Below, in pieces: positions 56,267 through 62,482 of a DNA stretch of 64,000 bases. How positions within the stretch are numbered: position 1 is the stretch's first letter; every line of letters starts with the position of its first letter. Made by a program: the position numbers and the translations under genes. Source of the DNA: Curvularia clavata (lineage: Eukaryota); assembly GCA_023920165.1 (NCBI GenBank), contig CP089275.1:4898001-4962000 (forward strand), in the 5' to 3' direction. The notes below the pieces were generated by a model that did not search any database, was not told where the DNA came from, and worked only from the letters and a program-made list of their open reading frames with translations.

Positions 56267-57060
56267 ATGCTGTTTCCGTCCTTTGCCATTCTCGCTGCGG
56301 CGAGCAGTCTGCTGTCCTTTGCGACGGCGCACAACATCCAGATGAAGGCTCACCAGCGCGAATGCTTCCATGAGCAGCTACACAAGGGCGATAAAATGAC
56401 AGTCACCTTCCAAGTCGGCGACCGGGAATTTGGCGGCAGCGGCAACTTGGAGATTGATTTCTGGGTGCGTGAATAGGAACCTGAGGCTTGTGTGAAATCA
56501 ATGGCCGCAATGGCGGTACTAATCCAACTTCGCAGATTGAAACTCCCTCTCGCAGCTACCAAGTTCACGAGCGCGGCGTATCCAATGGTGATCACTCCTT
56601 CGACGCGACTGAAGACGGAAAGTACACGTACTGCTTCAACAACGAACACTGGGGCGCCAACACCAAAGAGGTCTCGTTTAACGTCCACGGCATTGTCTAC
56701 GTCCCCGAATCGGAAGCCCCGCAAGATCCTTTGGAGAAGGAGGGTGAGGATGTCTGAATCAGAATTGGAAAAGAAATGCGCTAATTGTAGCAGTTCGTCA
56801 GATGTCTGATCTCGTAGCGCAGGTAAAGGATGAGCAGAGTTATATTATCGTTCGTGAGAGGGTACACAGGAACACGGCTGAGAGCACCAACTCGCGCATC
56901 AAGTGGTGGAGCATCTTCCAACTCACAGTATTGGTTGGTCAGGGCTTCTTCCAAGTGTGGTGGTTAAAGCGATTCTTCGAGGTTAGTGGCACCCCGAGAT
57001 TCGTAGTCAAATTCTCTGGTCGCTCTACTAACATACCCCTAGGTCAAGCGTGTTGTGTAA
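56267..57060 (+). CDS. EMP24: p24/GOLD family COPII cargo receptor, Emp24
   Basis: Signal peptide, RECFHEQL, GKYTYCF.N, KEVSFNVHG, RERVHRNTAESTNSR.KWWS, LKRFFEVKRVV. Introns 56465-56535, 56744-56793, 56982-57042. Confidence 0.93.
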
Positions 57061-57815
57061 AATTTGTTTCTCCTAGGAAGCTTCGAAATATTGTGCGACA
57101 GGATATGCTGCTTGTATCCAGCTGCATAACCCTGCATTTTGGCTTGTCTGTTCGGCGTTGAAATGTATGCTTGTAAAGTCCGATATAGGAAAAGATGGAG
57201 TATGGTAGAAATTACATGATGGTCCGCAGGATGGGGGACTGGGTAAGGTCAAATGCGCGTATGCATACTATTTCAATATTTCCTACTTTGCAGTTCAACC
57301 CCAGTCAATGAGTCTTCCTCCTTCAGTCTGAAGAGCTTGGTATTTGTCAGAGACGTTTCGTTGGTCAGCTAGAATAACAGGCTAGTCTTCTTGCACGGGC
57401 ATTTATTTGAGTGGCTGATGATAGTGAGTGGCAAGAAAGACGTATTGCGAATTGCGCATTGTAAGCCAGAATCGCTGCTGAGCTGATTGCATGTGCCAAG
57501 ACCAAAGTGGGATGGCGCTAGTGGGGAGCTCCAGCACCTTCGCTGTGACAAGTACTCACGTAATAACAACGGCTGCCTGCTGTTTCTTCAGCACTTCCTT
57601 TTCCTCCCGTTTACACCATCCTACTCAACAGCACTGCAAACCAGTTGATCTCGTTTGTTTACACTCCCGACCATACACACCACTTAGTACCCCGCGATAG
57701 TCAAGGCGCCCGCGATTGCCACACTTGACAGCCTCTAGGCTTCGCAACAGTCGGCAAACTGGGGAAGAGGCAACAGACCGGCGAGGACGCTCGTCCCAAC
57801 AAGAAAGAAAAGGTT

Positions 57816-60800
57816 ATGACAGTGAGTGTGCCTCGAATCTTGGTATCAAAGCACTTTGCGCGTCTTCAGCCTCCGCTCGCCTGATAAACTCTACGTATGT
57901 TTAGTGCTAACATGGAGAAGGAAAAGATGCAGGTTGACAGCCCTGCTACTGCCGTTGAGCAGCTCAAAGAGGCCTCTGGCAACAATGGCGATATTGATGA
58001 GTCTCTATACAGCAGACAGCTGTACGTGTTGGGCCACGAGGCCATGAAGCGCATGGGCTCGTCCAACGTCCTTGTCGCTGGTCTGCGAGGTCTCGGTGTC
58101 GAGATCGCAAAGAACATTGCACTTGCTGGTGTCAAATCACTAACACTCTACGACCCCAAGCCCGCCGCGCTCGCCGACTTATCTTCACAGTTCTTCCTTA
58201 CGCCCGACGATGTAGGAAAGCCGCGCGCCTCCGTTACCGTACCCCGCGTTTCAGAGCTGAACCCATACACACCTGTCCAGGAATTCACTGGGAAGGATCT
58301 GACATCGGACTTGTCGCAGTTGAAACAATTCCAGGTCGTAGTCCTCACCGACACTCCACTAGATGACCAGATCAAGATTGCCGACTACTGCCACGACAAC
58401 GGCATTTACATTGTTATTACGGATACATATGGTCTTTTTGGTAGCATTTTTACCGATTTCGGCAAGAACTTCACTGTTGGCGATCCCACCGGCGAGAATG
58501 TCACCAACGGTATCATTGCGGGTATCGATGAGGAGGGTATTGTATCGGCATTGGACGAGACAAGGCACGGCCTCGAGGATGGCGACTGGGTCACCTTTTC
58601 CGAAGTTGAGGGCATGGAAGCTCTGAACGGCTGTGCACCTCGCAAGGTAGAAGTCAAGGGACCGTATACCTTCTCGATTGGAGATGTGTCGGGGCTCGGA
58701 GAGTACAAGAAGGGAGGTCAGTTCATTCAAGTCAAGATGCCTAAGATCATCAACTTCGAATCTTTCAGCCAGCAGCTGAAGAAGCCCGAGCTTCTCATTT
58801 CCGACTTTGCAAAGTTCGACCGACCGCAACAACTGCATGTTGGTATTCAAGCCCTGCACAAGTTTGCAAAACTCCACAAAGGCGAATTCCCCCGCCCTCA
58901 TCACGAGGCTGATGCGACAGAGCTATTGAAGATTGCGCAAGAGATTGCAGGCGAAGGTGAAGAGAAGGTCGAGCTGGACGAGAAGCTCATCAAGGAACTC
59001 AGTTATCAAGCTCGTGGTGACCTCAGTCCTGTAGCTGCTTTCTTCGGTGGAATGGCCGCGCAGGAGGTGCTGAAGTCTGTGTCTGGAAAATTCCACCCTA
59101 TCGTGCAATTCCTCTATTTCGACTCTCTAGAGTCACTACCTACTTCAACGACTCGTTCGGAAGAGCAGTGCGCCCCGATTGGTTCACGTTACGACGGCCA
59201 GATTGCAGTACTGGGTCAGGAGTACCAGAAGAAGCTCAGCAATGTGAAGCAGTTCCTGGTTGGTGCGGGTGCTATTGGTTGTGAGATGCTCAAGAACTGG
59301 GCCATGATGGGTTTGGCTACTGGTCCTGAGGGCAAGATTACTGTAACCGACAATGACCAGATTGAGAAGAGCAACTTGAACCGTCAGTTCTTGTTCAGGC
59401 CTGCAGATGTCGGCAAGCTAAAGAGCGACGCTGCGGCAAAGGCAGTGCAGGTCATGAACCCTGATCTGAAGGGAAAGATTGTTACCCTATCGGAAAAGGT
59501 TGGCCCCGAAACCGAGCATGTCTTCAACGAGGATTTCTGGAACTCGCTGGACGGTGTGACTAACGCGCTTGACAACGTGGAAGCGCGCACGTATGTCGAC
59601 CGACGATGTGTCTTCTTCCGCAAGCCTCTGCTCGACAGTGGTACTCTCGGCACCAAGGGCAATACCCAGGTTGTCCTGCCCTTCATCACTGAATCTTACT
59701 CTTCGTCACAAGATCCACCAGAGAAGTCATTCCCTATGTGCACATTGAGGAGTTTCCCCAATCGCATTGAGCATACCATTGCCTGGGCACGAGAGTCGTT
59801 CGATTCGCTATTTGTGAAGGGACCCGAAATTGTCAATCTGTACCTGACGCAACCCGACTATCTTGGCGCGTCCCTGAAGCAATCCGGCAACGAGAAGCAG
59901 ACACTGGAGACTCTTCGGGATTTCCTGGTTACTGAGAAGCCGCTCACCTTTGATGACTGCATCATCTGGGCTCGTCACCAGTTCGAGAAGAACTATAACC
60001 ACGCGATCGCGCAGCTTCTATACAATTTCCCCAAGGATTCCAAGACCGGATCTGGCCAGCCATTCTGGTCAGGACCGAAGCGTGCACCTGACCCAACCAA
60101 GTTTGATGCCTCTAACCCCACTCACTTCACCTATGTTGAGGCTGCCGCCACCCTGCATGCCTTCAACTACGGTATCAAGCCAAACGCATCTCGCGAGCAC
60201 TACCTGGAGGTTCTCAACGACATGATTGTCCCTGACTTCCAACCCGACCCTACTGTGAAGATTCAGGCAGACGAGAAGGAGCCGGATCCAAACGCTAACC
60301 AATCTTCTGGAGATGATAGCGACGCGCTCAACAACATCATCAAGCAGTTGCCTGATCCAAAGTCTTTGGCCGGGTTCAAACTCGAGCCCGTCGAGTTTGA
60401 GAAGGATGATGATACTAACCACCACATTGATTTCATCACTGCAGCTAGCAACCTTCGTGCCGAGAACTACAAGATTGAGCAGGCGGATCGCCACAAGACC
60501 AAGTTTATTGCCGGCAAGATTATTCCTGCTATCGCCACAACGACGGCGCTTGTTACGGGTCTTGTCAACCTTGAGTTGTACAAGATCATTGATGGCAAGA
60601 CGGATATTGAACAATACAAGAATGGCTTCATCAACCTGGCGCTGCCCTTCTTTGGGTTCAGTGAGCCAATAGCTAGCCCGAAGGGAACATACCAGGGCCA
60701 CGACGGTGAAGTCACAATTGACAAGCTGTGGGATCGCTTTGAGGTCGACGACATTACTCTCAAGGATTTCGTTGACCACTTTGAGAAGAAGGGCCTGTCA

Positions 60801-61071
60801 ATCCAGATGATCAGCTCGGGGGTCAGCCTGCTGTATGCATCCTTCTACCCTCCTTCGAAGCTGAAGGACAGGATGCCTCTGACGTAAGTTACATTTACCT
60901 TTGTTGCTGATGTTTGATACTAATACATTGCACAGAATGAGCAAGCTCGTGGAACACGTTAGCAAGAAGCCCATCCCGGACCATCAGAAGAACGTCATCT
61001 TTGAGATTACAGCAGAGGACCAGAAGGAAGAAGATGTTGAGATACCTTATGTGATGGTCAAGCTCAAGTAA
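57816..61071 (+). CDS. UBA1: Ubiquitin-activating enzyme E1
   Basis: [32 protein letters not shown], catalytic [27 protein letters not shown]. Two-codon first coding exon ATG ACA|GTGAGT (donor 57822, branch CTAAC 57907-57911, in-frame acceptor 57920 or 57932). Last intron 60884-60935; TAA 61069-61071. Confidence 0.96.
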
Positions 61072-61388: not shown

Positions 61389-62482
61389 ATGGCGCCGTCA
61401 CTAGAAGAGCCTGTGCAGGTGGATTTTGAAGCGCCGCTCAAAGCAGCGCCCAAGTTGGTTGCGCCTGAGCCAGGTAGGTTTGCCCCACCACAGCGCTGGC
61501 GACTGTAGCAGAGCAGACGACTAACACATAGCCCACAGAGCACTGCCCTGGGCCCGAATCTGCTACAGCAGGCAAAGCAGACTCGTGCGCAGGATGTCCG
61601 AATCAGGCTATTTGCGCATCCGCGCCCAAAGGACCCGATCCAGATATTCCCCTCATAACCGCACGCCTCTCGTCAGTCAGGCACAAGATATTAGTTCTGT
61701 CTGGTAAAGGCGGCGTGGGAAAATCAACCTTCAGCACGATGCTGTCGCACGGCTTTGCCTCGAACCCACAATCTACAGTCGGTCTCATGGACACGGACAT
61801 TTGCGGGCCGAGCATACCCAAGATGATGGGGGTAGAGGAAGAAACGATTCACGTCAGCGGCGAAGGGTGGGAGCCCGTGTGGGTGAGCGAGAACCTAGGC
61901 GTCATGAGCGTGCAGTTTATGCTGCCGAACCGCGATGACGCTGTTATCTGGCGAGGGGCAAAGAAGAACGGATTGATTAAAAAGTTCCTCATGGACGTTA
62001 CATGGGGGGAGCTTGACTTTCTCATCGTGGACACACCACCTGGTACATCGGACGAGCATCTCTCAGTCAATTCGTTTCTCAAGGCGTCCGGTGTCGATGG
62101 GGCGGTGCTCGTATCGACGCCGCAGGAAGTGGCGCTGCTGGACGTAAGAAAGGAAATTGATTTCTGTCGTAAAGCTGGCATACCTATTCTGGGTATCGTG
62201 GAGAATATGAGCGGCTTCGTGTGTCCGGGGTGCAAGCATGAGAGCCAGATTTTCAGAGCGAGTACAGGTGGTGCAGCGAGGTTGGCAAAGGATGAGAATA
62301 TTCCGTATCTGGGGGCCGTACCGCTGGATCCCAGGATTGGAATGGCGTGTGATTTTGGAGAGAGCTTTTTGACAGCATACCCTGATAGTCCGGCGTGTAA
62401 GGCTATCCAGGAGGTGGTGAGGAGGGTAGGGGAGCAGATGGGGTTGGGGAGGGATGAGGTGCTGCCGGTGGAGGATGAGTAA
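61389..62482 (+). CDS. NBP35: Cytosolic Fe-S cluster assembly factor Nbp35
   Basis: N-terminal four-Cys [19 protein letters not shown] (across intron 61474-61538), P-loop [39 protein letters not shown]. Confidence 0.96.

Follow-up and report, generated by a model that had tools for sequence, protein, structure and literature searches.

A conserved CUG codon upstream of the annotated UBA1 start in Curvularia clavata as a candidate initiation site for an E1 form with a putative nuclear localisation signal

UBA1, the ubiquitin-activating enzyme (E1), is the single essential entry point of ubiquitylation. The UBA1 gene of the fungus Curvularia clavata raises the question of whether this enzyme is made in one N-terminal form or in several, and whether one of them begins at a codon other than AUG. 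The gene lies on the forward strand of a 64,000-nucleotide (nt) stretch (contig CP089275.1, positions 4,898,001 to 4,962,000, assembly GCA_023920165.1), which is called the window here and supplies all coordinates. A CTG codon at 57759..57761 precedes the first in-frame ATG of the gene (AUG1, 57816). Judged by its conservation, an extended UBA1 is very probably translated from this codon. The full statement, in which the CUG-started form also has a role in nuclear import, is made with less assurance: we regard it as probable, the import role being read from the peptide.

A CTG codon in frame with AUG1

Upstream of the ATG at 57816, the reading frame is open back to an in-frame TGA at 57726..57728 (all features described here are on the + strand). 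The TGA is followed by QPLGFATVGK and then by the leucine codon CTG 57759, and no in-frame AUG occurs after the stop. Initiation at the CTG would add LGKRQQTGEDARPNKKEKV ahead of AUG1, as a 19-codon N-terminal extension (57759..57815) that reads (M/L)GKRQQTGEDARPNKKEKV. The nearby ATGs are located at 57418, 57491, 57512, 57816, 57897, 57912 and 57927, and the interval 57515-57815 is hence free of ATG. A preliminary description of this DNA had claimed the open frame, the CTG in the setting AAA CTG G, the lack of ATG in this interval and the gain of 19 residues, and the sequence agrees with it on each of these points.

CUG is usually the most efficient near-cognate start codon. With CTG, GTG, TTG and ACG taken as the efficient set, CTG 57759 is the sole in-frame member between the TGA and AUG1, and within the 221-nt leader it is the only one that combines a purine at -3 with G at +4. 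The whole initiation context, GGC AAA CTG G (57753..57762), has C at -4, A at -3 and G at +4.

Relatives were collected with residues 1-200 of exon 2 as the query against metagenome contigs, a search that returned 80 loci with identities of 96-67%. Four loci (L009, L046, L064 and L075) were set aside because their upstream DNA was too short or an anchor was missing, which left 76 usable loci. All 76, from Dothideomycetes and Eurotiomycetes, encode the peptide (K)LGKR[KR].S.E[DE]..P.KK..M in the frame of the exon-1 ATG, or in one contiguous open reading frame where intron 1 is missing. The peptide was found by pattern in 72 loci and by inspection in four, namely L016, L032 and L038, which carry long insertions, and L017. 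The first intron of L017 is about 1.1 kb long, compared with 99 nt in the window; its exon 1 and CTG extension are intact and lie about 1180 nt upstream of the LYSRQLYVL anchor. The loci correspond to 60 distinct extension sequences, the window included.

At the position of the leucine, the 60 distinct sequences have CTG (43), TTG (3), ACG (1), ATG (7) or none of these (6). The preliminary description had predicted a conserved near-cognate codon, and CTG, TTG or ACG is indeed present at this exact site in 47 of the 60. The codons CTC, CTT, CTA and TTA do not occur there in any of these sequences. The non-AUG starts have A at -3 in every case (47/47) and G at +4 in all but one (46/47), and C at -4 accompanies 45 of the 54 starts when the seven ATG starts are counted. 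In the ATG starts, position -3 is C and position +4 is A; an AUG as weak as this would still leak ribosomes to AUG1.

A maximum-likelihood tree was computed from the first 540 coding bases with 60 rows kept and 17 dropped (six identical copies, L065-L074 with an intron within the stretch, and L079). CTG is widespread in this tree. ATG is found at two places, L016 and a clade with six members; the TTG rows make up a single clade within CTG rows, and the ACG of L023 is sister to a CTG row with a support of 99/97. At least six state changes have occurred at the position, solely to start-competent codons or to loss. The occurrence of ATG in two separate lineages is expected of a true start site. 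The substitution pattern and the context of the CTG are thus start-like in the sequences compared.

The surroundings of the codon are also maintained. Many relatives share with the window an in-frame stop 3-10 codons upstream of the CTG, with no efficient near-cognate codon between. Of 46 distinct leaders, 41 are free of ATG in the interval that begins 160 nt upstream of the start and ends at AUG1; in all, six ATGs were observed and 110 are expected from composition, a count that is not a probability because the leaders are related. AUG1 directly follows the second basic cluster of the extension, and in 57 of 59 distinct sequences its -3 base is a purine. Taken together, the comparative data place the CUG feature far beyond chance.

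The extension itself varies in the manner of a coding sequence. Among the 54 sequences with a start codon here, 51 have an extension of 17-22 codons and the other three have 34, 35 and 46 codons, always in frame. The Lys and Arg of the first basic cluster (KR, 57765..57770) are invariant in 60/60 distinct sequences, and their codons are not: the Arg is encoded by AGA (22), AGG (11), CGA (10), CGG (8), CGC (5) and CGT (4), and the Lys by AAA (32) and AAG (28). Over 436 pairs of the same length, the ratio between nonsynonymous and synonymous differences (pN/pS) is 0.54 in frame, compared with 1.23 in frame +1 and 0.94 in the 18 codons upstream of the context. The alternative frames contain stops, frame +2 in 42/60 sequences and frame +1 in 16/60. 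The extension frame is under purifying selection at the protein level, and the open frame with synonymous-biased changes that the preliminary description had foreseen in relatives is present.

Could the same region be untranslated, and conserved as an element of the leader or promoter that acts as RNA or DNA? Within the Pleosporaceae, nucleotides upstream of the CTG are also well conserved, as such an element would require. Its action on RNA or DNA would leave unexplained why Arg and Lys are fixed while their codons are free to vary, why all insertions and deletions are in frame, why pN/pS is below 1 only in the extension frame, and why ATG arose at the start position in two lineages. The leader RNA has a minimum free energy of -49.9 kcal/mol, no better than shuffled sequence (z = +1.35), and no structure is claimed for it. 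We consider an untranslated element very improbable, and translation of the extension is the reading followed below.

Transcripts across the leader

Translation from CTG 57759 presupposes that the codon is within the mRNA, and public sequencing runs contain it. Twenty runs matched the locus, and four from four studies (X1, X2, X3 and X11) were examined. X2 is recorded as RNA, and the RNA status of X1, X3 and X11 was guessed beforehand. The splice joint 57821^57921 is present in the contigs of all four, with zero depth inside the intron, and the four contig sets are therefore RNA-derived. The joint removes intron 1 (57822..57920; 99 nt, GT..AG, phase 0). The end of UBA1 exon 1 (57816..57821) consists of AUG1 and a Thr codon (ATG, then ACA) and is followed by a GTGAGT donor at 57822. 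Across the joint the mRNA reads ...AAG GTT ATG ACA|GAA AAG ATG CAG..., or MT|EKMQVD; exon 1 contributes only Met-Thr to the short form, the N-terminus of which is MTEKMQVD.

In each run, the contigs are unbroken through TGA 57726 and CTG 57759 to the donor. Their 5´ ends are at 57594 (X3), 57604 (X1), 57622 (X2) and 57644 (X11, where adaptor letters precede the position), although assembled contigs fix neither true 5´ ends nor transcript shares. Since the contigs run without a break from 57594-57644, the CTG belongs to the mRNA, to which no upstream exon is joined. Since the TGA is in frame inside the same contigs, no upstream AUG can feed the extension frame. The UBA1 mRNA leader traced in this way (57594..57815) is free of ATG. 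In all four runs the mRNA extends upstream of 57759, as the preliminary description had required. The same description had named a counter-case, an upstream AUG exon spliced to the CAG at 57729-57731. This exon was looked for and rejected; the four runs contain no such joint, and their contigs are colinear with the genome.

Relatives give a matching picture. The metagenome contigs L001 and L079 lack the intron, as cDNA would, and begin at a position homologous to about 57604-57609; across the whole leader, their sequence is colinear with that of the genomic loci L002 and L006. In X3, 22 loose letters precede 57594. They have no match in the window with up to 3 mismatches allowed and could be adaptor, a chimera or a distant exon.

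The region 57346-57591 is without RNA cover in X1, X2 and X11, which was counted as uninformative. In X3, a contig of low depth (2.1, compared with 489 for UBA1) covers 57420-57570, between the main leader and the transcript of the upstream emp24-family gene, which ends near 57336-57395 in RNA contigs. Rare longer transcripts are therefore possible. They would contain ATG 57491 and ATG 57512 and a 70-codon upstream open reading frame (uORF) in another frame.

Such possible longer transcripts bear on a second alternative, in which the extension is made from a start other than CUG 57759, either an AUG brought by a rare transcript or splice form or a different non-AUG codon. Some relatives (L048, P0122, P0246 and P0296) do have an in-frame ATG further upstream, and the CTG is missing in Chaetothyriales-like loci. 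In the window, however, every contig contains the in-frame TGA 57726, ATG 57491 is out of frame, and the sole joint in the four runs is 57821^57921. No other efficient in-frame near-cognate codon is available between the stop and AUG1, and the CTG has the substitution pattern and context of a start. A start elsewhere in this lineage thus appears highly unlikely, and CUG 57759 remains the preferred candidate.

Basic clusters of the extension and a probable role in nuclear import

What could 19 added residues do? The extension carries KR at 57765..57770 and a second basic cluster, KKEK, at 57801..57812. A bipartite nuclear localisation signal (NLS) was defined as two basic residues, a spacer of 10-12 residues and at least three basic residues in the next five, and the window peptide, with KR-x10-KKEKV, has this arrangement. 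In 45 of 47 distinct peptides, the first KR is followed by a basic pair at a distance of 10-14 residues. A Ser no more than four residues from the KR, followed by an acidic residue, is found in 38 of 47; the window has Thr at this place. The extension most likely acts as an NLS of the importin-alpha type.

The first 11 residues of human UBA1a comprise an NLS and serines needed for phosphorylation and nuclear localisation (PMC4596250). The preliminary description had likened the fungal gene to mammalian UBA1a (nuclear) and UBA1b (cytoplasmic). The likeness holds in that the enzyme is the same, two in-frame starts lie on one mRNA, and a short, basic, Ser-rich N-terminus precedes the IDE.LYSRQLY block by about 40-50 residues (LSKKRRVSGPD in human, GKRRLSGED in fungi). 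The basic, Ser-bearing motif of UBA1a is at about the same distance from this block as that of the fungal long form, and an internal Met of the human protein is located between motif and block, as are AUG1 and the second AUG (AUG2) in the window. The likeness fails at the upstream start: both human starts are AUG, whereas the fungal one is CUG, with ATG in 7 of 60 distinct relatives. In addition, the short form begins 40 residues downstream in human and 19 in the fungus. Basic motifs (for example NKRKLSSSE and SKKRRMD) also stand at the beginning of a few database representatives whose UBA1 sequence is animal-like.

A search of solved structures matched residues 6-60 of human UBA1a (LSKKRRVSGPDPK...; 4p22_A and 9mc4_A) with E-values of 0.003-0.008. 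The match is driven by the IDE.LYSRQLY block, and the KRR[LV]SG motifs are six residues out of register. Because the motif likeness is short and out of register, common descent with the human extension is no more than possible. A bolder scenario, which we offer as speculative, would make an NLS-bearing UBA1 N-terminus ancestral to fungi and animals, with fungal GKRRLSGE equivalent to human KKRRVSGP. Filamentous ascomycetes would then have exchanged AUG for CUG in a perfect context, so that the nuclear share of E1 would be set by start-codon stringency (eIF1/eIF5 levels, stress), and AUG revertants would have been kept weak, with C at -3, to preserve this dial.

The mechanism that we propose starts from one UBA1 mRNA with an AUG-free, unstructured leader of about 220 nt, which would be read from two starts, possibly three, by leaky scanning. 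A minority of scanning ribosomes would start at CUG 57759, whose context (C at -4, A at -3, G at +4) is the optimal one in filamentous fungi, and would make the long form M-GKRQQTGEDARPNKKEKV with its 19 extra residues; that the long form is the minority product is what we infer. A CUG start is expected to be read as Met, which would probably be cleaved off ahead of the Gly. The remaining ribosomes would reach AUG 57816 and make the annotated form MTEKMQVD, and some might continue to AUG 57927. In the extension, KR and KKEK are ten residues apart, with a phosphorylatable Thr or Ser and then acidic residues between them. Nuclear E1 would come from the long form, whereas the short form would be mainly cytosolic, as for mammalian UBA1a and UBA1b.

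A third, slightly shorter UBA1 form from AUG 57927 is possible. This in-frame second AUG (57927-57929, MQVD..) is located 3-8 codons past AUG1 in most orthologues examined and is the start of many public models.

The main rival to nuclear import is a translated extension with another role, for example as an element for docking or stability under the control of phosphorylation, as a signal for some other compartment, or as a coupling of E1 output to start-codon stringency. KRRLS resembles a basophilic-kinase site and S..E/D a CK2 site. The best-kept part of the peptide, KR[KR].S.E[DE], is the part with the nearby Ser, the second cluster is often a mere KK, and the human N-terminus is also a phosphorylation region (PMC4596250). 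Against this, the two basic clusters keep their bipartite spacing in nearly all peptides, in human, the counterpart that carries a similar motif is established as an NLS (PMC4596250), and phosphorylation and import are compatible rather than exclusive. We consider a role other than import to be the less likely outcome, though one to be taken seriously, and continue to favour nuclear import.

Several observations weigh against the CUG-started nuclear form or limit it. The absence of ATG from the window leader, taken alone, is within chance (2.4 expected from base composition, P about 0.09). The loci are mutually related, so the counts from them are of non-independent events. The strict 3-of-5 bipartite rule describes 12 of the 47 distinct peptides (window included) and leaves out 35; it is not a conserved property, and the KR-x10-KKxK signal of the preliminary description stands for the window but not as a general pattern. 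The likeness to the human NLS is restricted to a short motif, and the HMMER match rests on the downstream conserved block. Six distinct Chaetothyriales-related sequences keep the peptide with GCC or GCT in place of CTG. Finally, P0202 (Aspergillus affinis) and P0214 (Penicillium angulare) have KPGKR, and some Penicillium- or Aspergillus-like proteins have KPGKR or KPEKR.

Comparable starts are known from other genes. Neurospora crassa cpc-1 has conserved near-cognate starts with A at -3 and G at +4 and an interchange of CUG and UUG (Ivanov et al. 2017, PMC5487733). It shares with UBA1 the Pezizomycotina setting, conserved CUG/UUG/ACG codons in this context and an AUG-free open frame, and its dN/dS of 0.35 is, like the pN/pS of the UBA1 extension, below 1 (PMC5487733). 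It differs in its extensions of about 180 residues, its several starts and the inhibitory uORFs that are bypassed (PMC5487733), whereas the 19-residue UBA1 extension has a single start, involves no uORF and probably serves in targeting. Fungal 6-phosphogluconate dehydrogenase likewise has a non-AUG start and a cryptic targeting signal in the annotated 5´ untranslated region of a housekeeping gene, which give dual localisation; that enzyme is a different one and its signal is a peroxisomal PTS2, not an NLS (PMC7214817). Human FGF2 has CUG starts upstream of the AUG that lead to longer isoforms with a different intracellular location, but the protein is a growth factor of vertebrates rather than an E1, and there are several CUGs (PMC2121090). 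Arabidopsis UBA1, with its Met63 proteoform, has two N-terminal forms by alternative initiation, but both start at AUG (PMC8770321). The literature searched, the coverage of which excludes most subscription journals, contained no description of a fungal UBA1 extension that has a non-AUG start or bears an NLS. The kind of feature is known, both as a near-cognate start that adds a targeting peptide (6-phosphogluconate dehydrogenase, FGF2) and as the cpc-1 extensions; the fungal UBA1 case is new, unusually clean and concerns an essential enzyme.

Taxonomic spread, gene models and meaning

The named matches of the window protein come from the Dothideomycetes, Pleosporales among them. The loci that lack CTG match Lithohypha at 89-90% identity and, next, Capronia, Exophiala and Fonsecaea, which places them in the Chaetothyriales (Eurotiomycetes). 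Because the CTG is missing in some lineages, it is not a universal start, and another start must serve there. In the Eurotiales, read-through models show the peptide as ..AAKLGKRRAS..RPEKKIMTD (P0191; P0183, A. tanneri; P0194, A. nanangensis), and models P0175 and P0185 have a KLAKRR variant. By this comparison, the extension predates the split between Dothideomycetes and Eurotiomycetes, with the CTG not kept everywhere.

In Eurotiomycete-like loci (L045, L050-L053, L060 and L062, with L056, L078 and L065-L074), an extra conserved block, ..GKATVTISPHAE.., was observed in frame about 30-100 nt upstream of the KR codons. Within the block, an ATT with A at -3 is found without exception, and ahead of the block stands an inverted repeat, CTTGC-N5-6-GCAAG, which contains in-frame stops in some loci. 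This ATT, in frame and about 12 codons upstream in the Chaetothyriales, is the sole near-cognate codon shared by the six CTG-less sequences, and AUU may be the start in them.

Most public UBA1 models begin at AUG1 (MT.., MA..) or at AUG2 (MQVD..). A search with residues 1-40 of the L019 protein found only four database proteins that have the extension. An extension profile run against 1.84 billion representatives gave 95 matches, mainly short fragments, and the few with the extension have ATG or read-through starts. P0121 is labelled Quercus suber and is a fungal-type UBA1 with the extension; the label is probably due to contamination. Many Eurotiales models (P0182/P0186/P0188 and other Aspergillus or Penicillium models; 1380-1470 residues) fuse an upstream glutathione S-transferase to UBA1. 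The open frame upstream of AUG1 might invite such fusions and far-upstream starts.

By orthology, the window gene is UBA1, the canonical ubiquitin-activating E1. Exon 2 (57921..60884) begins with EK and AUG2 and ends near a second intron. It encodes the complete Pfam domain set, with all matches above the cut-offs: ThiF (PF00899, two stretches for the two adenylation folds), E1_FCCH (PF16190), E1_4HB (PF16191), UBA_E1_SCCH (PF10585) and E1_UFD (PF09358). The protein is 96% identical to an Alternaria burnsii cluster representative over 100% of the query, the next matches are from Pleosporales, and identity to named Dothideomycetes UBA1 is 78-90%. UBA1 is flanked on the same strand by an emp24/p24-family cargo receptor gene upstream (56748-57161) and by a NUBP/ParA-type Fe-S cluster P-loop NTPase gene downstream (61532-62482).

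Loss of one human UBA1 start-codon isoform causes VEXAS syndrome, which makes the division of E1 between nucleus and cytosol topical. If the CUG-started form is made as proposed, filamentous fungi would offer a genetically tractable model of E1 partitioning that is CUG-based and conserved across Dothideomycetes and Eurotiomycetes. The gene would also add a short, clean case in which targeting depends on a non-AUG start, and fungal gene models that begin at AUG1 or AUG2 would miss a protein form of a core enzyme. Should the ancestral-NLS scenario hold as well, start-codon stringency would act as a translational dial on nuclear ubiquitylation.

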